The notes: a model not told the origin generated them from the sequence alone. A stretch of 64,000 nucleotides of DNA from an uncultured Acidobacteriota bacterium (GCA_963843275.1 CAWJJM010000012.1:221756-285755); one strand, 5' to 3'. Positions 13,518 through 63,013 are shown, counted from the stretch's first letter. Translations and numbers: made by a program.

Positions 13518-16500
13518 GTGCGGTCGGTGGTTCGATCCTGGCGAGCGGCCCCGTGCGGCCTGTACGTGGCTCTCTTCGCGGTCGTCGTCTGCGGCGCCGC
13601 GTCGCCCGCCCACGCCGTCCAGAACCAGGTCCGCATCCTCGTCGACGCGGACGCCGAGCCGGCGACCGGCTGCACCGTGCCGACGCCGGAAGGCCCGTTC
13701 GACGGGGTCGAGTGGATCCTCACCACCACGATCGAGACCGTCGCGGTGCCGTCGCCGTCGGCCACCGTCACCGAGGTGACGAAGCAGGCCTGCGTCGACG
13801 CTTCCAGCGACACCTTCGGCCCGCCGGTGGTCGTCGACCCGGGCGACTGGCCGGTCGGGGTCGACCTCGGGCTCGACGCCTTCGACGTCGTCGAGACCTA
13901 CCTGCCGCTCTCCGACCTGCCCGCGAACGGGCTGCGGATCCGCGTCGCCGTGGTGAGCGACGACGGACAGGTTTCGCGGGCGCTGCTCGAGACCTCGCCG
14001 CGGAGCGGCCAGGACATCTTCGTCGCCATCCGCTCGATCCTGGAGATTCCTGCGCTGGGCGGTCCCGGGCTGGTGGCGTTGGCGGCGTTGCTGGCGCTGG
14101 CCGCCGCGGCGCGGTTGCGCCGCCGACCGCGGGCGGCGCTGCTGGTGGTCGCGGCGCTGCTCGGCGCCACCGGGGTGGCGTGGGCGGCCTGCGTCCTCGA
14201 CGGCGATCCGGGCGACTGGGCGCCGGGTCAGGAGATCGCCGACAACCCGCCGGCGAGCTGCCCGGGCGGCGGCGCCGAGATCCGCGCCGTCTTCGCCCAG
14301 ACGGACCCGGGGCACGTGTGCTTCCGGGTGGACACCTGCCTGCGCTTCAACACCCCGCCGGTGGCCGACCCACAGAGCGTCTCGACGCCGGAGGACACCC
14401 CCCTCGGGATCACGCTCACCGGCTCGGACGCCGACAGCGACCCGCTGACCTTCTCGATCGTCCCGGCGACCGGCCCGTCCCACGGCGGCCTCACCGGCAC
14501 GCCGCCCGACGTCACCTACACCCCGGCGGCGAACTACCACGGTCCGGACGGGTTCGACTTCCGGGTGGACGACGGCCACGGCGGCACCGGCACGGCGACC
14601 GTGTCGATCACGGTGACGCCGGTCAACGACCCGCCGGTGGCCGACGCGGACGGCTACACGGTGGACGAGGGAGCGACGCTCAACGTCACGGCCCCGGGCG
14701 TGCTCGGCGGCGACGACGACGTCGACGGCGACCCGTTGACCGCCGTGCTGGTCGCCGGCCCGTCCCACGCCGCGTCGTTCACCCTCCACGCCGACGGTTC
14801 GTTCGACTACACCCACGACGGCTCGGAGACGACGAGCGACACGTTCACCTACGAGGCGAACGACGGCGCGCTGGACTCGAACGTGGCGACGGTGACGATC
14901 ACGGTGAACGCGGTCAACGACGCCCCGGTGGCGGTCGACGACACCTACGCGGTGGACGAAGGCGGGGTGCTGAACGTCTCGGCGCCCGGGCGTGCTCGCC
15001 AACGACACCGACGCCGAGGGCGCCAGCCTGACCGCGGCCCTGGTCAGCGGCCCGGCGCACGCGTCGTCGTTCACGCTCAACGCCGACGGCTCGTTCAGCT
15101 ACACGCACGACGGCTCGGAGACACGTCGCGACACCTTCACCTACAAGGCGAACGACGGCGCCCTCGACTCGAACGTCGCCACCGTGTCGATCACGATCAA
15201 CCCGATCAACGACCCGCCGGTGGCGGACGACGACGCCTACACCGTCGACGAGGGCGGGACGGTGAGCGACGTGGCGCCGGGGCGTGCTGGCCGGCGACAC
15301 CGACGCCGAGGGCCAGCCGCTGCAGGCCCTGCTGTTCACCGGTCCGTCGCACGCGGCGGCCTTCACCCTCAACACCGACGGCTCGTTCAGCTACACCCAC
15401 GACGGCAGCGAGACGCCGCTCAGCGACTCGTTCAGCTACCGGGCGAACGACGGTGCGCTCGATTCGAACGTGGCGACGGTGACGATCACCGTCACGCCGG
15501 TCGACGACCCGCCGGTGCTCGACCTCGACGCCGACGACTCCGGCGGTACCGGCGGAGCCGACTACGCCGTCACCTTCACCGAGGGCGACGCGCGGACGCT
15601 GCTCGAGGACGCCGCCGACGCCACGATCTCCGACGCCGACTCGGCGACGCTCGCCACGCTGACGGTGACGCTGACCAACCTGCTCGACGCCGGTTCCGAG
15701 GTGCTCGACGTCGACCTCACCGGGGCCGACGCGGCCTTCTCGAAGGACTACGACACGACGACCGACCCCGCGAAGGGCGTGCTGACGGTCACGGCGTCGC
15801 CGGCGCGGCCGCTGGCCGAGTGGGTGGCCCTGCTGCGCAAGGTGACCTACGTCGACTCCGACCAGGATCCCGACGCCACGGCGCGGGTGGTCACCTTCGT
15901 GGCGAACGACGGCTCGGAGGACGGCAACACGGCGACGTCGACGGTGACGGTGGTGCCGGTCGACGACGCCCCGGTGGCCGACGCCGACGCCTACACGGTG
16001 GACGAGGGGGGCACCCTGAACGTCTCGGCGCCGGGCGTGCTCGACGGCGACACCGACGCCGAGGGCGGCAGCCTGACCGCGGCTCTGGTGAGCGGCCCGT
16101 CGCACGCCTAGTCGTTCACGCTCAACGCCGACGGCTCGTTCAGCTACACCCACGACGGCTCGGAGACGACTTCGGACTCGTTCACCTACAAGGCGAACGA
16201 CGGCTCGCTGGACTCGAACACGGCGACGGTGTCGATCACGGTGAACGCGGTCAACGACGCCCCGGTGGCGGTCGACGACACCTACGCGGTGGACGAGGGT
16301 GGGGTGCTGAACGTCTCGGCGCCCGGGCTGCTCGGCAACGACACCGACGCGGAGGGCGGCAGCCTGACCGCGGCTCTGGTGAGCGGCCCGTCGCACGCGT
16401 CGTCGTTCACGCTCAACGCCGACGGCTCGTTCAGCTACACCCACGACGGCTCGGAGACGACCGCGGACGCGTTCACCTACAAGGCCAACGACGGCTCGCT

Positions 16501-19500
16501 CGACTCGAACACGGCGACGGTCTCGATCACCGTCAACCCGGTCGACGACCCGCCGGTCGCGGTGGCCGACACGGCACAGATCTTCGAGGACCCGGGCTCG
16601 CCGACGGCGCTCGACGTGCTGGCCAACGACAGCGACGTCGACGGCGGGCCGAAGCAGGTCGTCTCCGCCACCGATCCGGCGAACGGCACGGTGGCGCTGA
16701 CCCCGGCCGGCCCCGGCCCCTACAGCGGGCTGACCTACCTGCCGGACGCCAACTACTGCAACAGCCCGGCCGGTCCGTCGGCGACCCCGGACACCTTCAG
16801 CTACACCCTGAACGGCGGTTCGTCGGCGCTGGTCAGCGTCACCGTGATCTGCGTCAACGACCCGCCGGTCGCCGGCACCGACGCCTTCGACTTCGTCGGC
16901 AACACCGAGCTGCGCGTCGATCTCGCCGCGGCGGCGACGCCTGCCGCCCTGGAGACGACCGGTTCGGGCAGCGGCGTCCTCGACAACGACAGCGACCCGG
17001 TGGAGGGCGACCCGCTGTCGATCGTCGGCCTCCACGTCGGTGCCTGCATCGACAACAGCGCGCCCTTCGACTGCACCGACGCCGCGGTGGGCCGGGTGCA
17101 GCTCGGCAGCGACGGCAGCTTCAGCTTCCTGCCGGCCGCGGGCGACGGCGACGCCAGCGAGAGCTTCCAGTACACGCTCTCCGACGGCACCGACACGACG
17201 ACGGGAACGGTGAACCTGACCCGTGTGGCCCGCGTCTGGTACGTCAAGAACGACGCCGCGGGCGGCGGCACCGGCACCTCGGCCTCGCCGTTCGACACCA
17301 TCACCGCGGCGAACCTGTCAGATGACGACGGCGACGGCGACCTCACCGACGACCTCGACTCGGCCGGCGACTGGATCTTCGTCTACTACGGCGACGGCAC
17401 CTCGAACGGTCAGTCCACCGGCCTCGTGCTCGAGGGCGGCCAGCACCTGATCGGCGAGCACGTCGGCCTGTCGCTGCCGGTGAACCTCAACGGCAACGGC
17501 TCGCCGACCGTTCTGGTGGCGGCCGCCCCGGGCAACCGGCCGCGGCTCGACGACACGGTGGCCGACGGCTTCGACGGGGTCGAGGCGCACGACGTCGTGC
17601 CGGCCGAGGTCGCCGGCATGAACCTGGCCGGCAACATCAACGGGCTCGACTGGACGACCACCGCCGCCTTCGCCGGCGCCGGCACCTTCGCCGTCCACGA
17701 CAACGTGGTGCGCTCGGCCGGCGTCGAGGGCGTCGACGTCAACCTGGCGGGGAGCGGCAACACCGTCCTCTCGTTCCACGACAACGCCCTGACCGCGACC
17801 GGCACCGCCCTCGACGTCCAGGAGACCGGCAGCGGGGCCCTGACGATCAGCGCCTTCGACGACAACACGGTCGGCGGCAACACCGGCGGCTCGGGCCTGG
17901 TCGTCAACGGCGCCACGTTCGACGCGGTCCCCGGCGGCGGCATCGACACGGTCCTCGGCGGCACGACGGCGATCGGCGCCTCCGGCAACGGCGTCGGCCA
18001 GGCCGGCCTGATGCTCTCCAACGTCCAGGGCGACCTGCACTTCGCCAACCTGTCGGTCTACGCCGACTCGGGCGCGGGCCTCGGCGTCACCGGGACCGGC
18101 GCCGGCATGACCTTCCGGGTCAACTCCGGCGGCGGCGCGACCGGCGTCGTCCAGGCGATCAACGGGCCGGCGGTGTCGGCGAGCGCCGTGGCGTTCGACC
18201 TGCGGCTGTCCGACATGGACAGCACCAACAGCACGAGCCAGGGCGTGTCGCTGACCAACGTCACCGGCACCTTCTCGGCCGAGTCCGGCAGCGCGATCAC
18301 CAACGCCACCGGGACCGACTTCCTGATCAGCGGCGGCACCGCCAACGTCACCTACAAGGGCGCGATCACCGACGACGTCGGCCAGCTCGTCGCGGTCTCC
18401 GGCGCCACCGCCGGTACCAAGAGCTTCGAGGGGGCCATCACCGACGGCGACGACGGCGACGGCAGCGGCGTGTCGTTGTCCAGCAACACGGGCGCGACGG
18501 TGCGCTTCTCGGGCGGCCTGGTGCTGTCGACGGGTGCCAACCCGGCCTTCGCGGCGACCGGCGGCGGCACGGTGGAGATCTGCGACGAGACCCCCTGCAA
18601 CCCCGCCGCGACGGGCCTCGCCGTCAACAAGATCACCACCACGACCGGGACGGCGCTGAACGTGGCGAACACCAACATCGGCGCCAACAACCTCGAGCTG
18701 CGCAGCGTCTCGGCGGGCACGGCGGGGAGTGGGCCCACCAACGGCATCGTGCTCAACACCACCGGGTCGGGGGGCGGCCTGAAGGTCAAGGGCAACGGCT
18801 CGGCGGGCTCGGGCGGCACGATCCAGAAGACGACCAGCGACGCGATCGCGCTGACCAGCACGCAGCACGTCGCCCTGTCGTCGATGAACGTGCAGAACAG
18901 CGCCGAGAGCGGCATCCTCGGCTCCTCGGTCACGGATCTCGACCTCACCGGCTGTAGCTTCACCAACAACGGAGACGACTCGGCGGACGTCGGCGTCAAG
19001 GTCACGAACCTCGCCGGCTCGGCGACGTTCAGCGGCACCTCGATCACCGGCTCGGCGCTGGCCAACGTGTTCATCGACAACACCGCGGCGGCCTTGAGCT
19101 CGTTCACCATCTCGGGCGGCAGCTACGGCAGCCTGGGAACGGCGTTCGGCGGCAACTCGATCCTGCTCAACATCCGCGGCACGTCGACTCTGACCACCGG
19201 CAGTGTCAGCGGCATCACGGTGGCGAACAACAAGCCGGCCCGCGGCATCACCGTGCAGGCGCAGGACACGGCCACCATCTCCGACTTCACGGTGCAGACC
19301 AGCACCTTCACCAACAACGGCCTGCAGGCGAGCTTTGAGCAGTCGGGGTCGGCCAACCTGTCCTTCAAGCTGCTCAACAACCCGACGATGACGATGACGT
19401 TGCCGGCGGCGGGCACCAGCCATGCGGTCAACGTGTCGAGCTCGTCGACCTCGACGGGGGGCACCATCCAGGGCCGCATCCAGGGCAATACCATCGGCAA

Positions 19501-20011
19501 CGCCGCGGTGGCGAGCTCCGGCTCGCCGATCGGCAACGGCATCCGTGTCCTGGTCCAGGGCCGCACCACCGCCACGCTGCTCATCGACGGCAACACCATC
19601 CGCCAGGTGCCGCAGGCGCGCGGCATCGACGTCCAGTTCCTCGGGCCGCTCTCCTCGGGGCAGCCGCTGTCGCAGAGCGACGTCACGGTCACCGGCAACG
19701 ACGTCAACCCGCAGGATTCGACGGGCTTCCCGACCGCCGCCATCTACCTGGCGGCGGACAGCCAGGGCGGCTCACCGGTTCGCATGCGCTCCGACGTGCG
19801 CAGCAACACCGTGCCGGCCGGCGCCGCCTTCGACGCGCTACCGACGTACCTGATCGTCGACGAGGTCGCGGCGGCGGCGGAGGCGCAGCTCGTCGACACC
19901 GCGCCGGCGAGCGCGAGCTGCACCGCGCAACTGACCAGCACCAACACCGGCAGCGCCTCGGCGGCGGCCGGCTGCGCCCTGATCGCGGGCCCGATCAACA
20001 CGCCCCCCTAG
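13518..20011 (+). CDS. Giant (~2160 aa) secreted repeat protein/adhesin: at least 9 tandem ~95-aa cadherin/Ig-like (VCBS, tandem-95 type) repeats plus ~900-aa Gly/Thr/Ser/Asn-rich beta-helix-like C-terminal region; 2 frameshifts and 1 in-frame TAG as assembled
   Basis: Repeats of form VNDAPVAVDDTYAVDEGGVLNVSAPG..DTDAEGGSLTAALVSGPSHASSFTLNADGSFSYTHDGSETT.DTFTYKANDGSLDSNTATVSITV; frame 0 to ~14990, frame 1 to ~15285, frame 2 to 20011; TAG at 16109-16111; first ~200 aa may be a separate fused ORF (see findings). Confidence 0.75.
14340..16860 (+). repeat. Intragenic tandem repeat array (~285-bp period, several copies about 90% identical at DNA level) inside giant adhesin gene
   Basis: e.g. 14893-15185 and 16232-16525 are near-identical (gtgaacgcggtcaacgacgccccggtggcggtcgacgacacctacgcggtggacga...). 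Confidence 0.8.
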
Positions 20012-52086: not shown

Positions 52087-54999
52087 ATGGCGACGAGCAG
52101 CGGCCGAGCGAGGTCCCGCAAGGCGCCGGCGCTGGCCCGCGAGCTGCGGGCGGCGGTGCGTGGCGAGGTGCGCTTCGACCGCGGCACCCGGGCGATGTAC
52201 TCGACCGACGCCTCCAACTACCGGCAGGTGCCGATCGGCGTCGTCCTGCCGCGCGACGCCGCCGACGTCGAGGCGGCGCTGGCGGTGGCGCGGCGCCACG
52301 ACGCGCCGGTGCTGGCGCGCGGCGGCGGCACCTCGCTGGCGGGGCAGTGCTGCAACGTCGCCGTGGTCCTCGACCTGTCGCGCCACCTGCGGCGCATCCT
52401 CGAGGTCGACCCGGTGCGGCGGGTGGCGCGGGTCGAGCCCGGCGTCGTCCTCGACGACCTGCGCGACGCCGCCGAGCGGCACGGCCTGACCTTCGGGCCC
52501 GACCCGGCCACCCACGACCGCTGCACCCTCGGCGGGATGATCGGCAACAACTCCTGCGGCGTGCACTCGCTGCTGGCGGGCAAGACCGACGCCAACGTCG
52601 AGTCGCTCGAGGTCGTCACCTGGGACGGCCTGCGGATGGAGGTGGGGGCGACGTCACCGGAGGAGCGGCGGCGCCTGGTCGCGGCAGGCGGCCGCCGGGG
52701 GGAGATCTACCGGCGGCTGGGCGAGCTGGCCGAGCGCCACGGCGACGAGATCCGCCGCCGCTTCCCGCGCATCCCGCGCAACGTCTCCGGCTACAACCTC
52801 GGGCAGCTCCTGCCGGAGAACGGCTTCCACGTCGCCCGCGCCCTGGTGGGGACGGAGGGGACCTGTGCGCTGGTGCTCGCCGCCACCGTGCGCCTGGTGC
52901 CGTCGCCCCGCAACCGGGTCCTGGTGGTGGCGGGCTTCGCCGACGTCTTCGCCGCCGCCGACGCGGTCCCCGAGATCCTCGCCACGGGGCCGATCGGGCT
53001 GGAGGGGATCGACGACCACCTGGTGCGCGCACTGCGCGCCAAGCGCCTCCACCTCGGGGCGGTGGACCTGCTGCCGCCCGGGCGCGGCTGGCTCCTCGTC
53101 GAGATGGCGGGCGACTCGGCCGACGAGGCGGCGGCGCGGACCGATGCGCTGGTCGCCCGCCTCGGGCGGCTGGCGGGCGGCGCGCCGGCGGTGCGGCGCT
53201 TCGACGACCCGCGGCTGGCGCGGACGGTGTGGAAGACGCGCGAGGCGGCGCTCGGCGCCACCGCCATGGCGCCGGGCCGGCCGCCCGCGTGGGAGGGCTG
53301 GGAGGACGCCGCCGTGCCGCCGGAGCGGCTGGGGAGCTACCTGCGGCGTTTGATGGCCCTGCTCGACGAGTACGGCTACCACACCAACCTCTACGGGCAC
53401 TTCGGCGAGGGGTGCGTCCACACCCGCATCGACTTCGACCTCGAGAGCGCCGCCGGCATCGGGCGCTTTCGCGAGTTCGTCGAGCGCGCCGCCCACCTGG
53501 TGGTCGAGCACGGGGGCTCGCTCTCCGGCGAGCACGGCGACGGGCAGGCGCGTGCCGAGCTGCTGCCGATCCTCTTCGGTGAGCGGCTGACCGGTGCCTT
53601 CCGCGAGTTCAAGGCGATCTGGGACCCGGCGGGGCGGATGAACCCGGGCAAGGTGGTCGATCCCCACCGGCTCGACGAGGACCTGCGGCTGGGTGCGGAC
53701 TACCGGCCCTGGCGGCCGCGCACCGTCTTCGCCTACCCGGAGGACGACGGCGACCTGTCGCGCGCCGCGCTGCGCTGCGTGGGCGTCGGCGCCTGCCGGC
53801 GGGAGAGCGGCGGCACCATGTGCCCGAGCTACCGGGCGACCGGCGAGGAGCTGCACTCCACCCGCGGCCGCGCCCGGCTGCTCTTCGAGATGCTCCGCGG
53901 CGACGTGGTCCGCGACGGTTGGCGCAGCCGGGAGGTGCGCGCCGCGCTGGACCTCTGCCTGGCGTGCAAGGCGTGCCGCGCGGAGTGCCCGGCCCTGGTC
54001 GACATGGCCACCTACAAGGCGGAGTTCCTCCACCACCACTACCGCCGCCGGCTGCGCCCCGCCGCCGCCTACGCCCTCGGCCTGTCGCCCTACTGGCTGC
54101 GGCTCGCCTCGCGGGCGCCGCGCCTGGCCAACGCCCTGCTCGCCGCCCCCGCCCTCGGCGCCGCCGCCCGCGCCGCGGCCGGCATCGCCCCCGGGCGGGC
54201 CCTGCCGCGCCTGGCGCGCCGGCGCTTCCGCCGGCTGTGGCGGCCGGGGGCCGAGGCAGGCGGCGAGCGGGTGCTGCTCTGGCCGGACACCTTCAACGAC
54301 CGCTTCCGCCCGGCGACCGCGCTGGCCGCGGGTCGGGTGCTGGAGCGCAGCGGCTACCGGGTGGAGCTGCCGCCGGACGGGTTGTGCTGCGGCCGCCCCT
54401 TCTACGACTTCGGCTTCCTCGGCGCCGCGCGCCGCCACCTGCGCCGCATCCTCGCCGCCCTGGCCGACGAGATCGCCGCCGGCACCCTCGTGGTCGGCGT
54501 CGAGCCGAGCTGCGTGGCGGTGTTCCGCGACGAGCTGCCGAACCTGTTCCCCGACGACCCGGCGGCACGGGCACTGTCGCGCCAGGTGCTGACCCTGGCC
54601 GAGGCGCTCGCGCGGCCCGGCCACGCGCCGCCGCTGGCACCGTTGGAGGTCGACGCGGTGCTGCAGGGGCACTGCCACCACCAGGCGGTGATGGGGATGG
54701 GGCCCGACCGCGCCCTGCTCGACCGGGCCGGGGTGCGCGTGGTCGCCGACGACCACGGCTGCTGCGGCATGGCCGGCGCCTTCGGCTTCCAGCGCCGGCA
54801 CGCCGAGGTGTCCCGGGCGATCGGCGAGCGGGCGCTGCTGCCGCGGGTGCGGGCGACGGGGCCGGAGGCCCTGGTCATCGCCGACGGCTTCAGTTGCCGC
54901 GAGCAGATCGAGCAGGGCACCGGGCGGCGCCCCCTCCACCTCGCCGAGGTCCTCCTGCGCGCCTGCGGCGGTGCGCCGGCGGACGCCGGCGACCCCTGA
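52087..54999 (+). CDS. FAD-binding oxidase fused to (Fe-S)-binding CCG-domain protein (GlcD-GlcF-type fusion, YdiJ-like 2-hydroxyacid dehydrogenase)
   Basis: 970 aa intact; FAD_binding_4 ...PIGVVLPRDAADVEAALAVARRHDAPVLARGGGTSLAGQ...; C-terminal ...CLACKACRAECP...CCGRPFYDFG...CHHQAVMGMG...DHGCCGMAGAFG... Confidence 0.85.
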   Translation: MATSSGRARSRKAPALARELRAAVRGEVRFDRGTRAMYSTDASNYRQVPIGVVLPRDAADVEAALAVARRHDAPVLARGGGTSLAGQCCNVAVVLDLSRHLRRILEVDPVRRVARVEPGVVLDDLRDAAERHGLTFGPDPATHDRCTLGGMIGNNSCGVHSLLAGKTDANVESLEVVTWDGLRMEVGATSPEERRRLVAAGGRRGEIYRRLGELAERHGDEIRRRFPRIPRNVSGYNLGQLLPENGFHVARALVGTEGTCALVLAATVRLVPSPRNRVLVVAGFADVFAAADAVPEILATGPIGLEGIDDHLVRALRAKRLHLGAVDLLPPGRGWLLVEMAGDSADEAAARTDALVARLGRLAGGAPAVRRFDDPRLARTVWKTREAALGATAMAPGRPPAWEGWEDAAVPPERLGSYLRRLMALLDEYGYHTNLYGHFGEGCVHTRIDFDLESAAGIGRFREFVERAAHLVVEHGGSLSGEHGDGQARAELLPILFGERLTGAFREFKAIWDPAGRMNPGKVVDPHRLDEDLRLGADYRPWRPRTVFAYPEDDGDLSRAALRCVGVGACRRESGGTMCPSYRATGEELHSTRGRARLLFEMLRGDVVRDGWRSREVRAALDLCLACKACRAECPALVDMATYKAEFLHHHYRRRLRPAAAYALGLSPYWLRLASRAPRLANALLAAPALGAAARAAAGIAPGRALPRLARRRFRRLWRPGAEAGGERVLLWPDTFNDRFRPATALAAGRVLERSGYRVELPPDGLCCGRPFYDFGFLGAARRHLRRILAALADEIAAGTLVVGVEPSCVAVFRDELPNLFPDDPAARALSRQVLTLAEALARPGHAPPLAPLEVDAVLQGHCHHQAVMGMGPDRALLDRAGVRVVADDHGCCGMAGAFGFQRRHAEVSRAIGERALLPRVRATGPEALVIADGFSCREQIEQGTGRRPLHLAEVLLRACGGAPADAGDP

Positions 55000-55055
55000 T
55001 CGCGCCGCGCCGCGCGGCGGCTGCATTCGTTCGCTCCCGGGCTGCGTAGTAGGGG

Positions 55056-55643
55056 GTGATGACGGCGATCGGTGCGGCGGTCCTGGCGAACGACGCGGCC
55101 TCCCCGGCCCCCGGTGCGGCCGACGAGGAGCGGCTGTTGGCCCGCGCGACGGCGGGCGACGAGGCCGCCCTGGCCGCGCTGGTGCGGCGCCACCAGGGGC
55201 GGGTGTTCAGCATCGCCTTCCACGTCCTCGGCGATCCGGCCCAGGCCGAAGAGGTGGCGCAGGACGTCTTCCTCCGGCTGTTCCGCCGCCTGGGGCGGAT
55301 CGACGGTCCCGAGCACTTGGTGCGCTGGCTGCGCCAGGTCGCGTCGCGACGGGCGATCGACGCGCTGCGCCGCAACCGGCTGCGGGCCGCGGTGCCGCTC
55401 GACGCGGTGCCCGAGCTCGCCACCACGCCGGCCGATCCCTACCTCGCCCACCGGCTGCGCCGCCTCGTCGCGGCGCTCCCCGGGCACCAGCGGCTCGCCC
55501 TGGCGCTGCGCTACGGCGAGGGGCTGACACCGCAGGAGATGGCGGCGGTGCTCGGGCTGCCGGTCAACACCGTCAAGAGCCGTCTGCAACGCGCTCTGGC
55601 CCGGCTGCGCCGCGGGCTGGAGCCGGGGGAGGAGGAGCGATGA
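55056..55643 (+). CDS. RNA polymerase sigma-70 factor, ECF subfamily
   Basis: region 2 ...AEEVAQDVFLRLFRRL...LVRWLRQVASRRAIDALRR...; region 4 ...LPGHQRLALALRYGEGLTPQEMAAVLGLPVNTVKSRLQRALARLR. Confidence 0.85.
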   Translation: MMTAIGAAVLANDAASPAPGAADEERLLARATAGDEAALAALVRRHQGRVFSIAFHVLGDPAQAEEVAQDVFLRLFRRLGRIDGPEHLVRWLRQVASRRAIDALRRNRLRAAVPLDAVPELATTPADPYLAHRLRRLVAALPGHQRLALALRYGEGLTPQEMAAVLGLPVNTVKSRLQRALARLRRGLEPGEEER

Positions 55644-56011
55644 ACGACCTCGACCGGCTGCTGCGCGAGACCCTCGCGCCCCGCGAGCCCGCGGCGGGCT
55701 TCGCCGCGCGGGTGATGGCGGCGGAGCGCTTGCGGCGGCGCCGGCGCGGTGTCCGGCGGATGGCCTTGGCGGCCGGGCTGGCGGCCCTGCTGCTCGCCGG
55801 CGGCCCGGTGGCGCGGCGCGTCGCCGACGCCCGCCAGCACGCCGCCGCCCGGGAGGCCCGGCACCAGGTGCTCGTCGCCCTCGCCATCACCGGCCGCAAG
55901 GTCGAGATCGCCCGCCGTGCCATCCACCAGACCCTGGACCACCAGACCCCGGACGACGCCGGGGCCGGTCGACGACCGGCGCCCCGGCGCGACGAGAGGA
56001 GCGAACGATGA
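55640..56011 (+). CDS. Putative anti-sigma factor (single TM)
   Basis: ATG overlaps sigma stop (ATGA); MNDLDRLLRETLAPREP...; TM ALAAGLAALLLAGG; position and size typical of ECF anti-sigma. Confidence 0.5.
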   Translation: MNDLDRLLRETLAPREPAAGFAARVMAAERLRRRRRGVRRMALAAGLAALLLAGGPVARRVADARQHAAAREARHQVLVALAITGRKVEIARRAIHQTLDHQTPDDAGAGRRPAPRRDERSER

Positions 56012-56568
56012 GAAGCCGTCCCTGGATCGCGCTGCTACTGCTGACCGCGCTCGCGGCGCCCGCCGCGGGGGCCCGTGCCGCCGCCGCGGCCGGGCTGCAC
56101 CTGCCGGAGCTCGAGGCGCTCGCCGCCAAGGCCGACGAGGTCGTCGAGGTGGACCTCGACGCCGACATGCTGGCGCTCGCCGGCGGGCTGATGGCCGACG
56201 ACGACGATCCCGACCTCGAGCGCCTGGTCCACGGCCTGCGCGCCATCACCGTGCGCAGCTTCACCTTCGCGGCGCCCGGCGCCTACGACCCGGCGCTGGT
56301 CGGCCGGCTGCGCCAGCGGCTCGTGGGGCCGGGCTGGAAGCGCGTCGTCAACGTCCGCACCCGCGACGCCGAGAACGTCGAGATCTACGTGCTGCCCGCG
56401 CCGCCCCGGCTGGCCGGCCTGGTGATCCTCGCCGCCGAGCCCACCGAGCTGACCGTGGTCCACCTCGAGGGCGACGTCGACCTCGCCGACCTCGACCACC
56501 TGCAGGGGCGGATGGGGGTTCCCGACCTGGGGGTGGAGCGGACGCCGGAGCCGGAGGGCGCGCCGTGA
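56008..56568 (+). CDS. Small secreted protein, DUF4252-like (ECF-associated), copy 1
   Basis: MRSRPWIALLLLTALAAPAAGA signal; 186 aa; start overlaps upstream stop; ...LAAKADEVVEVDLDADMLALAGGLMADDDDPD...VRSFTF...VEIYVLPAPPRLAGLVILAAEPTELTVVHLEGDV. Confidence 0.5.
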   Translation: MRSRPWIALLLLTALAAPAAGARAAAAAGLHLPELEALAAKADEVVEVDLDADMLALAGGLMADDDDPDLERLVHGLRAITVRSFTFAAPGAYDPALVGRLRQRLVGPGWKRVVNVRTRDAENVEIYVLPAPPRLAGLVILAAEPTELTVVHLEGDVDLADLDHLQGRMGVPDLGVERTPEPEGAP

Positions 56569-57026
56569 GCCGGCGGCGCGTCGCCGCGGTGGCCGGCCTC
56601 GCCCTGGCCGGATCCCTGCTGGCCGGGGGGGCGCAGGCCGACGGCTTCCGGGCGCTGGCGCACCGGCTGGGCCGTCTGCCGCAGGTGCACCGGGTCCACG
56701 TCCCGTTCCTCTCCCTGGCGGCCCGCCTCGGCGGCGCCGGCGCCGACGGGGTGGCCGAGGTCCGCATGGCTCTCTACGAGGTGGAGGAGGGGGCGCGGCC
56801 GCCGCTCGCGGCGCTGGCGGCGGAGCTCCTGGGCCCGGGGTGGAAGCCCTGCCTGCGGGTGCGGTCCCGCGGCGAGGAGACGGTGATGCTGGCCCGCCGC
56901 GAGGGCGACCGGGTGCGGCTGGTCCTGGTGAGCCGGGACGAGGAGGACCTCGTGCTCCTCGCGGCCACCGTCCGGCCGCGGGTCTTCGTCGCCTCGCTCG
57001 AGGAGCGGCGGCTGGCCGACGGTTGA
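56565..57026 (+). CDS. Small secreted protein, DUF4252-like paralogue, copy 2 (GTG start)
   Basis: (M)SRRRVAAVAGLALAGSLLAGGAQA signal; ...RVHVPFLSLAARLGGAGADGVAEVRMALYEVEE...VMLARREGDRVRLVLVSRDEEDLVLLAATV; 4-nt overlap with upstream gene. Confidence 0.45.
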   Translation: MSRRRVAAVAGLALAGSLLAGGAQADGFRALAHRLGRLPQVHRVHVPFLSLAARLGGAGADGVAEVRMALYEVEEGARPPLAALAAELLGPGWKPCLRVRSRGEETVMLARREGDRVRLVLVSRDEEDLVLLAATVRPRVFVASLEERRLADG

Positions 57027-57034
57027 GCCGGACA

Positions 57035-57065
57035 CCCCCGCCCGCGGTTGGCGGTCGGGCGGGGG
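57035..57065 (+). terminator. Strong GC hairpin: 10-bp perfect stem (cccccgcccg / cgggcggggg) with 11-nt loop
   Basis: Read directly: cccccgcccg-cggttggcggt-cgggcggggg, 9 nt after the stop of DUF4252-like copy 2 and ~20 nt before the M14 peptidase ATG. Confidence 0.45.
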
Positions 57066-57083
57066 AAGCCGTATCCTAGGCGG

Positions 57084-58996
57084 ATGGCCGTACCGCGCCC
57101 CCTCCGTCCGCTCCGCTCTGCCCTCCCCGCCCTCGCTCTCCTGGTCTCCGCCGCCGCTCCCGCCCTCGCCGAGGAGCCGGTGCCGGGGGCGTGGCGCACC
57201 GTGGCGGAGCGCAGCGACTTCCGGGCCACCGGCTCCTACGACGACACGATGGCGCTGCTGCGCCGGCTGGCGGAGCGCTCGTCGGCGATCGAGCTGACCC
57301 GCTTCGGCACCTCGGCCGAGGGCCGCGAGCTGCCGCTCGTCGTGGTCTCCACGGCGGGGGCGTTCACGCCCGCGGCGGCGGCCCGCCTGGCGGCGGAGCG
57401 CGGCACGCCGATCGTGCTGGTGCAGAACGGCATCCACGGCGGCGAGATCGACGGCAAGGACGCCTGCCTGATGCTGCTGCGCGACATCGCCCTGGGGCGC
57501 CGCGCGGAGCTCGCCGCGGCGGCGACGCTGCTGGTGGTGCCGATCTACAACGTGGACGGTGCCGAGAAGGTGTCGCGGTTCAACCGGCCCAACCAGAACG
57601 GGCCGGTCGAGGGGATGGGCTTCCGCACCAGCAGCGACGGCCTCGACCTCAACCGCGACCACCTCAAGGTGGTGAGCCCGGAGGCGCGGGCGATGGTGCG
57701 GCTGTTCGACCTCTGGCGGCCCCACCTGCACGTCGACGACCACGTCACCGACGGCTCGGACCACGGCTGGGTGCTCACCTGGTCGGTCGCCGAGGCGCCC
57801 CAGCTCGCGGCGCCGCTCGACGCCTGGATCGGCCGGCACCTGCCGGCGGCTCTCGCGGCCACCGCCGCCGCCGGGCATCCCAACGGGCCGTACGTCGACC
57901 TGCTCGACCGCGCCGACCCCACCGCGGGGTTCTCGTCGATGGTCGCCCAGCCGCGCTACGCCACCGGGTACTACCCGCTGCGCAACCGGCCGTCGGTGCT
58001 GGTGGAGATGCACGCCACCGCGCCGTACCGCGACCGGGTGCTGGCCAACCGCGACTTCCTCGCCGCGCTGCTCGCCGAGGTGGGCCGCGACGGGCGGGCC
58101 CTGGTCGCGGCGGTGGCCGCCGCCGAGGCGGAGACGGTCGCCCTCGGGCGGGCCGGCGCGCCGCCGTCGACGCTGGCGCTGGACTGGGAGGCGTCGCCGG
58201 CGGGGGACCGCCGGGTGGTCCCGTTCGACGACTGGTCCCTCGAGGACTCGGTGGCGATGGGAGTCCCGATCCTCACCTACCGGCGGGGAGTGCCCCACCC
58301 GGTGGAGGTGCCCTGGCTCCACGCGCCGGTGCCGACGGCTCGCGGTGGCGCGCCCGCGCGGCTACCTGGTGCTGCCGGGCTGGCCGGCGATCGAGCGGCG
58401 CCTGGCCGTCCACGGGTTGCGGGTCGAGCGGCTGACCGCCCCGGCCGAGGTGCGGGCCGAGCGCTTCGAGCTGGGGGAGGCGAGCCTTGGCGGACGGCGT
58501 CTACCAGGGGCTCACCCGGGTGACGGCGCCGGTCGACCGCGTCGCGGCGACCGTGCGGGTGCCCGCCGGGACGCTCTGGGTGCCGGCCGACCAACCGGAC
58601 TTCGCCGTCGCCGCCGCGCTGCTCGAGCCGGACGCCCCGGACTCGCTCTTCGCCTGGGGCCTGCTGTCGACCCTGCTGGAGACCCGCGAGTACATCGAGC
58701 CGCGGGTCCTCGAGCCGCTGGTGCGCGAGATGCTGGCCGCCGAGCCGGAAACCGCCGCGGCGTGGAAGGCGGCGCTCGAGGACCCCGACTTCGCCGCCGA
58801 CCCGCGGGCGCGCTGGGCCTGGTGGTACCGCAGGACCCCGTACTTCGCGGCCCAGGAGCCGGCCTACCCGGTGCTGCGCGCGGTGGTCCGCCCGGTGTTG
58901 GAGACCGTGCCCTGGCCCGCGTTGCCGCCGGGTGCCGGACCTCCGCCCGCGCCCGCGCCCGCGCCGCCGCCGGCCGCGGGAGGGCGCCGTGGCTAG
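57084..58996 (+). CDS. M14-family Zn carboxypeptidase with signal peptide; 2 frameshifts (~58330, ~58490) as assembled
   Basis: MAVPRPLRPLRSALPALALLVSAAAPALA signal; ...VQNGIHGGEIDG... ...PIYNVDGAEK...LNRDH... (M14 Zn-binding/catalytic motifs); C-terminal continuation in ORFs 58345-59121 and 58487-58996. Confidence 0.7.
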
Positions 58997-60734
58997 CACC
59001 CATCGGCCCCTGTTCCCGCCCACCTACCGGCTGGTGGGCTACTGCGTCGTCGTCGGCGCCTGCGGGGCGGCGGCGGCGCTGTCGTTCGACTTCCTGGTCG
59101 AGATCGCCCAGCGCTTCCTGATCCACGGCATCGGCGGCTTCAACCCGCCGCCGGCCGGCGTCCTCGACCCGCCGGTGGTGGTGCCGCCCTGGACCTCGCG
59201 CTGGTGGTTCCCGGTGTCGACCACCCTCGGCGGCCTCTTGTCGGGCTGGCTCGTCTTCCGCTTCGCACCCGAGGCCGAGGGCCACGGCACCGACGCCGCG
59301 ATCGCCGCCTACCACGAGGGCGGCAAGCCGATGCCGGCCCGCATCCCGGTGGTCAAGGCGATCGCCTCGGCGATCACCATCGGCTCGGGCGGGGTGGCCG
59401 GGCGCGAGGGGCCGACGGCGCAGATCTCGGTGGGGCTGGGCTCGCTGCTCGCCAAGGGCCTGGGACTGCGCGGCCAGGAGCGCCGCATCCTGCTGCTGGC
59501 GGCGATGTCGGCGGGCCTCGCCGCCGTCTTCCGGGCGCCGCTCGGGATGGCCATCTTCGGCGTCGAGATCCTCTACGGCGGCATGGTGTTCGAGGCCGAG
59601 GCGCTCATCTACACCATCATCGCCGCGGTCACCGCCTACGCCCTGCACGGCTTCTACGCCGGCTGGGAGCCGATCTTCGTCATCCCGCAGGGCCTGTCCT
59701 TCCACCGGCCGGCGGCACTGCTCGGCTACGCGCTGCTCGGCATCCTGGCCGGCCTGCTGGGGACCGTGCTGCCGCCGCTCTTCTACCGCACCCGCGAGCT
59801 CTTTCTGCGCATCCCGACCATCCCCCACATCAAGCCCGCGATCGGCGGCCTGGGGGTGGGCCTGATCGGCATGGTGGCGCCGAGCGTCCTCGGCGCCGGC
59901 TACGGCTGGGTGGAGAAGGCGCTCGCCGGCAGCCTGCCGCTGGCCACCATGCTGCTGATCCTGCTGCTCAAGGGGCCGGCGATGTCGTTGACCATCGGCT
60001 CCGGCGGCTCGGGCGGCGTCTTCGGCCCCACGGTGGTGGTGGGCGCCATGCTCGGGGGCGGCACAGGCCTCGCCCTCCAGCATTTCCTGCCCGGCCTCGA
60101 GGTCAACGTCGCCGCCTTCGTGCTGGTCGGGATGGCGGCGGTCTTCGCCGGCGCCGCGCGCACCCCGATCTCCACCCTGATCATGACCGCGGAGATGACC
60201 GGCGGCTACGGCCTCATCGTGCCGGCGATGCTCGCCAACGTGATCTCCTTCATGATCCAGCGCTCGCTGACCGCCGGCTTCACCTATCCGACCCTGTACC
60301 GCTCGCAGGTCGAGTCGCGCGAGGACTCGCCGGTGCACCGCGGGGTGTTCGTGCGCCGGGCGTTGGAGATGATCGAGGGGGGTGGCGTCGAGCGCGGCCA
60401 GCTCACCCTGCCGCGATTGGTGTCGCTGCTGCGCTACGGCGAGTCGATCCCGGTGGCCGAGGGCGGCGGCATGCTGGTCGCCTTCGAGATCGCCGCGGAC
60501 AGCCCCCTCGACGAGCACACCGTGGCGGAAGGGGTCGGGAGCATCCCCGAGGCCACCGCGGTGGCGGTGCTGCGCGAGGGCAAGATGGTGGTGCCGCGCG
60601 GCCCCACCCGCTTCCGCGCCGGCGACCAGCTCATCGCCGTGGCCACCGAGGAGGGCCGCCGGGCGCTGGCCGCCGCCGCCGGGGCCGACCGCGCTCCCGC
60701 CTCGCCGCCGGCGGGCGAGGGCGACAGCGACTAG
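58989..60734 (+). CDS. ClC-family voltage-gated chloride channel/antiporter with C-terminal TrkA-C (RCK_C) domain
   Basis: GTG start; ...GSGGVAGREGPTAQIS... (GSGIP-like), ...GVEILYGG..., ...GGVFGPTVVVGAMLG... (GxFxP), ...AARTPISTLIMTAEMTGGY...; C-terminal ...GKMVVPRGPTRFRAGDQLIAVATEEG. Confidence 0.85.
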   Translation: MASTHRPLFPPTYRLVGYCVVVGACGAAAALSFDFLVEIAQRFLIHGIGGFNPPPAGVLDPPVVVPPWTSRWWFPVSTTLGGLLSGWLVFRFAPEAEGHGTDAAIAAYHEGGKPMPARIPVVKAIASAITIGSGGVAGREGPTAQISVGLGSLLAKGLGLRGQERRILLLAAMSAGLAAVFRAPLGMAIFGVEILYGGMVFEAEALIYTIIAAVTAYALHGFYAGWEPIFVIPQGLSFHRPAALLGYALLGILAGLLGTVLPPLFYRTRELFLRIPTIPHIKPAIGGLGVGLIGMVAPSVLGAGYGWVEKALAGSLPLATMLLILLLKGPAMSLTIGSGGSGGVFGPTVVVGAMLGGGTGLALQHFLPGLEVNVAAFVLVGMAAVFAGAARTPISTLIMTAEMTGGYGLIVPAMLANVISFMIQRSLTAGFTYPTLYRSQVESREDSPVHRGVFVRRALEMIEGGGVERGQLTLPRLVSLLRYGESIPVAEGGGMLVAFEIAADSPLDEHTVAEGVGSIPEATAVAVLREGKMVVPRGPTRFRAGDQLIAVATEEGRRALAAAAGADRAPASPPAGEGDSD

Positions 60735-61121: not shown

Positions 61122-63013
61122 TCAGATCTCGACCTGCATCCCGAGCTCGACCACCTGCTGCGGCGGGATGCGGAAGAAGCCGGTCGCCGGGGTGGCGTTA
61201 CGCGACATCAGGGCGAAGAGGCGCTCGCGCCACAGCGCCATGCCGGGCACCCGCTTCGTCGGGAGCAGGGTGACACCCCCCAGGTAGTAGGTGATGTCGT
61301 CGGGATGGAGGTCGACGCCCGCGCCGTGGGCGGCGCGCAGGGCGCCGGGGATGTCGGGCGTCTGCTGGAAGCCGTAGTGGATGACGATCCGGACGAAGCC
61401 CTCGCGGTACTCCTTGATCTCCAGGCGGTCGCGCACCGGCACCCGCGGCACCTCCTCGGTGACCACGGAGACCAGCACCACGCGCTCGTGGAGCACCCGG
61501 TTGTGGCGCAGGTGGTGGATGAGGATCGGCGGCGTGCCGCGGCGGTGGCCGGTGAGGAAGGCGGCGGTGCCGGGCACGCGGACCGGCGGGTCCCGGGAGA
61601 TCCCCAGCAGCAGCTCGTCGAGCGGCTCCAGCCCCTCGTCGACGTGCAACGCGAGCAGCTCGCGGCCGCGGCGCCAGGTCGACATCAAGACGTAGACCCC
61701 GGCCGCGACGAGCAGCGGGAACCAGCCGCCGTCGGGGATCTTCAGCAGGTTGGCGCCGAAGAAGACGCCGTCGACGGCGAGCAGGAAGACGGTGAGCGGG
61801 ATCAGCCAGCGGCGCCGCCAGCCCCAGCGCTCGCGCGCCACCAGGTAGGCGAGCAGCGTGGTGATGACCATGGTGGTGGTGATGGCGACGCCGTAGGCGC
61901 CCGCCAGGTTCGACGACGACCCGAAGCCCAGCACCAGCAGGATCGTCGCCACCATCAGCGCCCAGTTGACGAGCGGGATGTAGATCTGCCCGATCGCCTC
62001 CGACGAGGTCTGGACGATCTTCAGCCGCGGGATCTGGCCGAGCTGGACCGCCTGGCGGGTGAGCGAGAAGGCGCCGGAGATCACCGCCTGCGAGGCGATC
62101 ACCGTGGCGACGGTGGCGAGGATCGAGCAGCGGCCAGCGCAGCGCGTCGGGCGCCAGGCGGTAGAAGGGCTGGCGGACCGCCGCCGGCTCGGCGAGGAGC
62201 AGCGCTCCCTGGCCGAAGTAGTTCAGCAGCAGGGCGGGCAGGACCAGCGAGAACCAGGCCAGGCGGATGGGCCGTTTGCCGAAGTGGCCCATGTCGGCGT
62301 AGAGGGCCTCGCCGCCCGTGACGACGAGGAAGACGCGCCCCCAGCGCCAGCATCCCGGCCCAACGGTGGACGAGGAAGAAGCGCAGCGCCCAGGTCGGGT
62401 CGACGGCCCGCACCACGTCGGGCTCGAGCAGGATGCCGCGCACGCCGAGCGCGGCGAGGGTGCCGAACCAGACCAGCATCACCGGCCCGAAGTAGCGCCC
62501 GATGCCGGCGGTGCCGTGGCGCTGGAAGAGGAACAGCCCGAGCAGGATGGCGACCGACAGGGCGATCACCCAGGGGCCCAGCGACGGCGCCGCCACCTCC
62601 AGACCCTCGACCGCCGACAGCACCGAGATGGCGGGGGTGATGGCGCCGTCGCCGTAGAGCAGGGCGGCGCCGAAGATGCCCATCACCGCGATCAGACGGC
62701 GGCGGCGGCGCATCCGCCCGCGCCACGGGCCGAGCAGGGCGAGCAGCGCCAGGATCCCCCCCTCGCCCTCGTTGTCGGCGCGCAGCACGTAGCCCAGGTA
62801 CTTGATCGAGATGACGATGACCAGCGACCACAGGATCAGCGACAGGATGCCGAGGATGTTGACCGGGTCGGCGGGGAGGAAGCGGCCCTCGCCGCGGAGC
62901 GACTCGCGGAAGGCGTACAGCGGGCTGGTGCCGATGTCGCCGTAGACGATGCCGAGGGCGGTGAGCGAGGAGAGGGCGAGGCGGCCGCCGTGCTCCGTGT
63001 CCGGAGAGCTCAT
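61122..63013 (-). CDS. kup: KUP/HAK/KT-family K+ uptake transporter; 2-3 frameshifts (62100-62340) as assembled
   Basis: N-terminus [38 protein letters not shown]...; middle ...[31 protein letters not shown]...; C-terminus ...[28 protein letters not shown]...[40 protein letters not shown]...; pieces in ORFs 62099-63013, 61198-62292 and 61122-62102. Confidence 0.85.

Follow-up and report, generated by a model that had tools for sequence, protein, structure and literature searches.

A 64-kb stretch of DNA from an uncultured Acidobacteriota bacterium (GCA_963843275.1, CAWJJM010000012.1:221756-285755; hereafter the window, from whose first nucleotide all coordinates are counted) was analyzed, and positions 55022–57065 were read as a self-contained, autoregulated signaling cassette of four genes that is widespread in Acidobacteriota. 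The cassette encodes an ECF (extracytoplasmic function) sigma factor, a presumed anti-sigma factor and two secreted proteins of the DUF4252 type (P3 and P4, the products of genes 3 and 4), the latter pair being read as a periplasmic co-sensor; we put the probability of this reading at roughly 55%. The operon itself is conserved and compact, and is probably autoregulated. Among the signal-transduction systems of bacteria, ECF sigma factors form one of the major classes (PMC7826278). The original prediction for this region, made from the sequence by a model, had proposed an ECF module closed by a hairpin and followed by a functionally linked M14 carboxypeptidase; as set out below, the module was upheld and the link to the peptidase was not.

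Four open reading frames (ORFs) lie on the plus strand at 55056–55643 (195 aa), 55640–56011 (123 aa), 56008–56568 (186 aa) and 56565–57026 (153 aa), and start and stop codons overlap by 4 nt at all three junctions (ATGA, ATGA and GTGA). In this 75% G+C window, the phase of G+C content at the third codon position (GC3) switches exactly at the ORF junctions. A ribosome-binding site resembling GGAGG lies ahead of every internal start, and the GTG start of gene 4 is backed by an alignment of homologues. Both the coordinates and the GC3 phase thus agree with the four 4-nt-overlapping ORFs of the original prediction.

Related loci were collected from species-representative genomes using a scan based on the P3 family alignment, which gave 80 loci, all of them metagenome-assembled. 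Nearly all are from Acidobacteriota (Terriglobia, Bryobacterales, Pyrinomonadaceae, Thermoanaerobaculia and Vicinamibacteraceae), with a few from Steroidobacteraceae. The order sigma factor, small ORF and P3 was found in 74 of the 80 loci, with P4 directly 3′ of P3 in about 60–66. The sigma/small-ORF junction was within 20 nt in every one of the 74, and the identical 4-nt overlap was present in 49, overlap counts being approximate because a heuristic was used to place gene starts in the related loci. Identity to the closest P3 relatives is only ~37–48%, the organism being poorly sampled; homologues of the M14 gene place it in or near Thermoanaerobaculia, Acidobacteriota. No flanking gene family was present in more than 16 of the 80 loci and none of the loci carried an M14 gene within 5 kb, which argues for the cassette as an autonomous unit. 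It is an ordinary but widely conserved stress-signaling operon of Acidobacteriota.

Variant arrangements were also observed among the related loci. Four loci from Steroidobacteraceae and other Gammaproteobacteria (L014, L038, L057 and L082) have the order P3-like, sigma factor, small ORF, P3-like and no P4-type gene. Stop-to-stop frames of ~415–580 codons with a P4-like domain were seen in L055 (676–2412), L060 (2944–4614), L066 (2558–4276) and L070 (3162–4412), and in these same loci additional P3 copies adjoin the cassette. Together, the long frames and the extra copies suggest local duplication and fusion of DUF4252-type genes.

Judged by its domains, gene 1 encodes an ECF (group IV) sigma factor of the canonical type, as had been predicted. 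The ORF at 55056–55643 (+) encodes 195 aa, and the public gene call starts at the ATG at 55059 (194 aa). Pfam matches were obtained to Sigma70_r2 (E = 1.9e-16, residues 42–108), Sigma70_r4_2 (E = 9.8e-16, residues 133–184) and Sigma70_ECF (E = 1.5e-8); region 3 gave no Pfam match, leaving sigma-2 and sigma-4 only, as in the ECF class. The score against the NCBIfam sigma70-ECF superfamily model was 95.6 bits (cut-off, 42.9), and no NCBIfam sigma subfamily cut-off was reached. The nearest solved structures (SigE, SigK, RpoE and SigW) all matched at ~E = 1e-16 and were about equidistant.

ECF sigma factors are typically autoregulated from a group-specific promoter, with CGT common in the −10 element. 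The original prediction had pointed to the sequence upstream of the sigma gene as a place where an autoregulated promoter might be found, and a conserved candidate was located there at 55022–55048 (+), consisting of TGCATTC (−35 like), a 16-nt spacer and CGTA (−10 like). TGCATTC-N16-CGTA occurs once in the 64-kb window, where 0.02 matches are expected, and a relaxed pattern likewise matched here only. When the upstream regions of 72 related loci were combined with that of the window, TG[CA][AG]T[TC]-N16–18-CGTA was found 5′ of the sigma gene in 36 of the 73, compared with 18 of 1460 control segments (1.2%), using a pattern that was set after reading the upstream regions and then counted on these same regions. 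A sigma-70 promoter scan of the region found nothing. The −10 element ends 7 nt 5′ of the GTG at 55056 and 10 nt 5′ of the ATG at 55059, a distance that would leave the mRNA with no leader or almost none. The candidate promoter is presumably used by the cassette's own sigma factor. Loci from Pyrinomonadaceae and related bacteria (L016, L025, L032, L033, L036, L039, L044, L050, L058, L059 and L079) have longer anti-sigma ORFs of 170–220 aa, and in most Pyrinomonadaceae-type loci, L016 not among them, TGCATTC-N16-CGTA is replaced upstream by another conserved motif, GTTAACAGTCT ... CCCGTCTTAATC.

Gene 2 (55640–56011, +) encodes a protein of 123 aa with ~40 predicted cytoplasmic residues, a transmembrane helix at residues 41–58 and ~65 periplasmic residues. 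A small ORF of 93–220 aa recurs at the same position in the 74 related loci counted above, so gene 2 is not a chance ORF. In the family alignment, an N-terminal cytoplasmic motif (E..L..AL.R.EP..F..RV.A) is conserved, as are the single transmembrane helix and a periplasmic helix with the motif G..AK.QL..A.RI...KL. Position, topology and family conservation together indicate that the product is presumably the anti-sigma factor. A membrane protein at the anti-sigma position agrees with the original prediction, and the role assigned to it there is best kept as presumptive, no family match having been obtained. A class I anti-sigma factor has a recognizable domain of ~70–90 cytoplasmic residues, which gene 2 lacks; no His/Cys zinc motif was present in gene 2, and with ~40 residues before the transmembrane helix its product is too short for a class I domain. 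It may instead work like the class II (CnrY-like) anti-sigma factors, which it resembles in layout only.

P3 (56008–56568, +; 186 aa) matched DUF4252 (PF14060) with 44.3 bits (E = 2.4e-11; cut-off, 23.9) over profile positions 3–124 of 125. A profile search with P3 recovered 870 relatives, and PF14060 was present in all of the matches listed. P4 (56565–57026, +; 153 aa) scored 14.2 bits against the same model (E = 0.049), below the 23.9 cut-off; an exhaustive search yielded 101 full-length homologues, and a PF14060 match was found in 16 of 60 of these. The only feature of P3 and P4 aligned by BLASTP was a shared GPGWK motif. The two family alignments were matched by hhalign with 97% probability (E = 3e-11, 142 columns), and a hidden Markov model of the P4 family matched P3 at E = 4.4e-10. 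By these profile comparisons P4 is a divergent paralogue of P3, and its family is best described as a divergent sister of DUF4252. The resemblance to DUF4252 that had been proposed for both proteins was accordingly confirmed for P3; for P4 it failed at the Pfam cut-off and was recovered by profile–profile comparison.

In both proteins, as read from the sequence, the N-terminus is basic and is followed by a hydrophobic stretch and a cleavage site of the AxA type. True lipoboxes are rare in the two families, and the window proteins both carry type I signal-peptide features. On these features, the earlier description of two small signal-peptide proteins of 186 and 153 aa was correct.

AlphaFold models of P3 and P4 gave predicted local distance difference test (pLDDT) values of 79 (>88 at residues 30–165) and 89, respectively, and the order of secondary-structure elements is the same in the two models. 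Foldseek returned weak Mog1/PsbP-like matches for P3 (EagT6, PA94, PsbP and TiME; template-modeling (TM) score 0.3–0.4, E ~1e-3) and an overlapping Mog1/PsbP-like target set for P4 (MTC28, EagT6, DcrB and PsbP); taken together, the matches had TM scores of 0.3–0.4, E values of 1e-3 to 1e-2 and 14–17% identity. Profile searches of PDB sequences with P3 and P4 gave nothing significant. No invariant His, Cys, Ser or Asp was found in either family, which points to binding rather than catalysis. P3 ends in a conserved C-terminal tail motif, LQGRMGVP, which sits in a low-confidence region of the model; its conservation suggests a docking peptide.

Annotation already shows an association between ECF sigma factors and DUF4252 proteins. 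Transcript levels of PG0214 (the sigma gene), PG0215, PG0216 (the DUF4252 gene) and PG0217–PG0218 co-vary in transcriptomes of Porphyromonas gingivalis, as do those of PG0985–PG0987 (PMC10101095, PMC10434189, PMC11018363). NCBIfam likewise pairs a GFO_1088 family ECF-type sigma factor (NF058625) with a GFO_1090 family protein (NF058626). These Bacteroidota operons and the cassette share the gene order ECF sigma factor, small hypothetical protein, DUF4252 protein, PG0214–PG0218 containing extra small hypothetical proteins. Of the two secreted proteins in the window, the second can be shown to be a DUF4252 paralogue. The window proteins fell short of the GFO_1088/GFO_1090 cut-offs (sigma factor, 64 bits against 130; P3, 15.1 against 150), indicating a separate acidobacterial branch. 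EcfO/Reo of Bacteroides was considered as a relative and set aside, as it combines a dual-membrane-spanning anti-sigma factor with NigD targets rather than DUF4252.

By analogy only, the layout of the cassette recalls RpoE–RseA–RseB(–RseC) of Escherichia coli and AlgU–MucA–MucB of Pseudomonas, which are also autoregulated ECF operons with a single-pass anti-sigma factor and a secreted periplasmic protein. RseB binds the periplasmic part of RseA and gates inactivation of the anti-sigma factor; the class I anti-sigma domain of RseA comprises ~90 cytoplasmic residues and is accompanied by a large periplasmic domain, whereas the product of gene 2 has ~40 cytoplasmic residues and one periplasmic helix. 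The cassette encodes two paralogous periplasmic proteins where the RseB systems encode one, and no sequence or fold relationship connects them: RseB has a LolA-like fold and P3/P4 have a Mog1/PsbP-like look, no MucB_RseB domain was matched by Pfam in P3 or P4, and LolA appeared in Foldseek at a probability of ≤0.25 only.

CnrH–CnrY–CnrX of Cupriavidus metallidurans offers a second likeness, in that a minimal single-pass anti-sigma factor without a sensor is accompanied by a separate periplasmic protein in the operon. CnrY has a very short cytoplasmic sigma-binding segment (a class II anti-sigma domain), and CnrX is the periplasmic sensor. The CnrH structure (4cxf) was among the solved relatives of the window sigma factor. 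CnrX differs from P3 and P4 in being a helical metal sensor that is anchored in the membrane and has no relation to DUF4252, and the gene order there is cnrYXH; with no conserved His or Cys in P3 or P4, nothing points to metal sensing.

The best structural matches of both models were Mog1/PsbP-like proteins (EagT6/SciW DUF1795 chaperones, DcrB, and mycobacterial MTC28/LpqN/TiME), which fold into an alpha/beta sandwich containing a single antiparallel sheet, a fold that serves to bind hydrophobic helices or envelope components. The matches are weak and no family membership is claimed for P3 or P4. To our knowledge, none of these Mog1/PsbP-like proteins is linked to an ECF sigma factor.

In the mechanism that we propose, the ECF sigma factor would transcribe its own operon from the TGCATTC-N16-CGTA promoter, a motif whose presence and conservation were observed and whose use is presumed. 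The product of gene 2, going by its position, topology and family conservation, would tether the sigma factor at the inner membrane through its ~40-residue cytoplasmic segment. As it appears to present a single conserved helix to the periplasm, it would have no sensor domain of its own, and the DUF4252 pair would supply the sensing or gating. P3 and P4 would be made in step with the gene 2 product through coupled translation and, probably as a heterodimer, may act as periplasmic sensing or co-regulatory partners of the gene 2 helix. An envelope signal might then alter P3/P4 binding, whereupon the anti-sigma factor would be inactivated and the sigma factor freed. A more specific version, about which we are doubtful, has a Mog1/PsbP-like heterodimer docking on the single periplasmic helix of a minimal, class II-like anti-sigma factor and releasing that helix on binding a hydrophobic ligand of the envelope, for instance a lipid or a lipoprotein in the wrong place.

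Alternatively, P3 and P4 could be outputs of the sigma factor, made while it is active: periplasmic proteins with a protective or chaperone-like role, binding components of the envelope that are hydrophobic or misplaced. Lying downstream in an autoregulated operon, they would be induced along with the sigma factor; their fold resembles that of helix-shielding or envelope-biogenesis proteins (EagT6, SciW, DcrB and LpqN), and no other conserved target gene adjoins the cassette. We consider this alternative about half as probable as a co-regulatory role, because in acidobacterial classes far apart from one another P3 and P4 keep very strictly to their place beside the anti-sigma gene, in translational coupling with it, and because the anti-sigma factor is without any sensor domain. 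Strict adjacency and a sensor-less anti-sigma factor are what would more typically be found with co-regulators like RseB or CnrX.

Several points weigh against the autoregulated cassette with a DUF4252 co-sensor and are reflected in the probability given for it. Defining and counting the promoter pattern on the same upstream regions will have somewhat inflated its enrichment over controls, and the closeness of the promoter to the start codon would mean either that the mRNA is leaderless or that the true start lies further downstream. The overlap counts in related loci carry the approximation of heuristic gene starts. Gene 2 had no Pfam or NCBIfam match, the best being a "putative anti-sigmaE protein" at E = 0.14. 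The weak fold matches make the Mog1/PsbP assignment of P3 and P4 tentative. No experimental work on DUF4252 proteins came up in the literature searched, where a search on PF14060 returned Plasmodium gene identifiers only, so that the co-sensor role is purely one that we infer.

The 57-nt gap between P4 and the M14 gene contains a G+C hairpin at 57035–57065, which starts 8 nt past the stop codon of P4 and has the perfect 10-bp stem that had been described and a loop of 11 nt. Its position in this short gap and its very stable stem (−30 kcal/mol for the best 45-nt window) would suit a factor-independent, U-tract-less terminator or a 3′ end stabilizer that ends the operon, and strong hairpins also follow P4 in a few G+C-rich relatives (L078, L083, L027 and L022). 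Set against such a function, the hairpin is followed by AAGCCGTATCC, which is not a U-tract as in an intrinsic terminator, and a terminator scan was empty. Perfect 10-bp stems numbered six in the window, compared with a mean of 6.3 in 30 first-order Markov simulations, and the folding z-score of the hairpin region was −0.84; in a 75% G+C sequence a perfect 10-bp hairpin is not unusual. Nor was structure enriched 3′ of P4 in 63 related loci (mean, −13.7 kcal/mol against −14.3 kcal/mol in controls). Repeats of the hairpin elsewhere in the window and Rfam matches to it were both absent. A functional element is thus somewhat less probable than a chance palindrome. That the hairpin closes the operon, as originally proposed, is plausible from its location and unproven, given the missing U-tract and the lack of group-wide structure in relatives.

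An exported M14 metallocarboxypeptidase gene follows at 57084–58996 (+; ~635 aa when repaired). Its assignment to the M14 family was supported by a Peptidase_M14 match (E = 3.1e-16) and by the catalytic motifs HGGE (residue 118), LNRDH, HVDDH (216) and LVEMH (306), the HxxE, third His and catalytic Glu expected of an M14 domain being present. Homologues, 600–650 aa long and 56–70% identical, come from Thermoanaerobaculia and carry the name M14 family metallopeptidase. The gene had been suggested to be the regulated target of the module or the generator of a peptide or peptidoglycan signal for it. This now appears very improbable, although the gene lies on the same strand only 57 nt downstream, its product is exported and acts on peptides, and a hairpin without a U-tract would permit read-through. 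No M14 gene was found within 5 kb of any of the 80 related cassettes, and synteny already contradicts the link. Conversely, of the M14 homologues on long contigs, the three closest (64–66% identical; contigs of 44–87 kb) all lack an ECF cassette upstream, and in two of the three (L004 and L005) a ClC/TrkA_C channel gene lies 3′ of the M14 homologue, as it does in the window (58990–60734, +), where a possible GTG start at 58990 overlaps the M14 stop at 58994–58996. In L002, the one other close P3 relative that was examined, unrelated genes come next. Neither the strict nor the relaxed pattern places a cassette-type promoter in front of the M14 gene in the 64-kb window, and the gene is frameshifted twice in the assembly. 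Judged by synteny, the M14 gene is an unrelated neighbour of the cassette that belongs with the following ClC chloride-channel gene, and annotation should leave it out of the cassette regulon.

The M14 gene is not a single ORF and is distributed over three frames by two +1 shifts, each a 1-nt insertion, at 58334–58345 (about 58340, +) and 58485–58490 (about 58487, +). A single M14 homologue was covered by tblastn only when three frames were used, and codon-phase analysis agreed; removal of one base at each site restored the frame. The catalytic motifs and domain all lie 5′ of the first frameshift, and the M14 product on record for the contig (P0004) is 479 aa long. Only hand-checked cases of frameshifts are reported here. 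No independent assembly over the M14 frameshift sites was found by exact look-up (P0004 and the C-terminal ORF) or by a metagenome scan with a gapped DNA pattern, and the sole independent contig of the organism (L001) ends before these sites.

Two further genes of the window are disrupted. A Kup-type K+ transporter gene (61122–63013, −) runs through three frames, with apparent 1-nt insertions near 62335 (GGGGCGCGTC) and 62125 (CTGCTCGATCC), after each of which the conserved stretch picks up in the next frame. A giant repeat protein (15266–20011, +) with "DGSFSYTHDGSE"-type repeats has an in-frame stop at 16109–16111, where other repeats have Ala, its two halves sharing one frame.

Real gene decay would account for the one nonsense codon and the four 1-nt frameshifts, spread over two genes, that were found within 64 kb, and the otherwise conserved, colinear sequence would be as expected of recent events. 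We nevertheless regard decay as less likely than not: removal of both single bases restored gapless colinearity of the M14 product with its homologues at unchanged identity, codon-position G+C remained coding-like throughout each shifted segment, and clustering of errors within single genes would be typical of assembly indels in G+C-rich DNA. Assembly indel errors behind the disruptions are a serious possibility, and such frameshifts will truncate predicted proteins.

Upstream of the cassette, a gene at 52087–54999 (+; 970 aa) has its stop codon 22 nt 5′ of the promoter motif. Its product, read from the translation only, resembles an FAD-linked oxidase fused to Fe-S/CCG-type domains. Neighbours vary among related cassettes, and so no link of this gene to the cassette is expected. 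A known defence system was considered and discarded, PADLOC giving no match, and Rfam returned nothing relevant within 54500–59500.

Acidobacteriota are very abundant in soil and hard to study genetically. The present analysis defines a concise acidobacterial four-gene cassette together with its promoter, a family of minimal anti-sigma proteins and a pair of partners of the DUF4252 type, the second of the secreted proteins being recognized as a divergent DUF4252 paralogue, and the cassette offers a concrete, testable entry point to DUF4252 function. Should the docking-and-release version of the mechanism be true, the DUF4252 pair would represent a previously unrecognized class of ECF co-sensor, giving DUF4252 its first function and explaining the PG0214-type operons of Bacteroidota.

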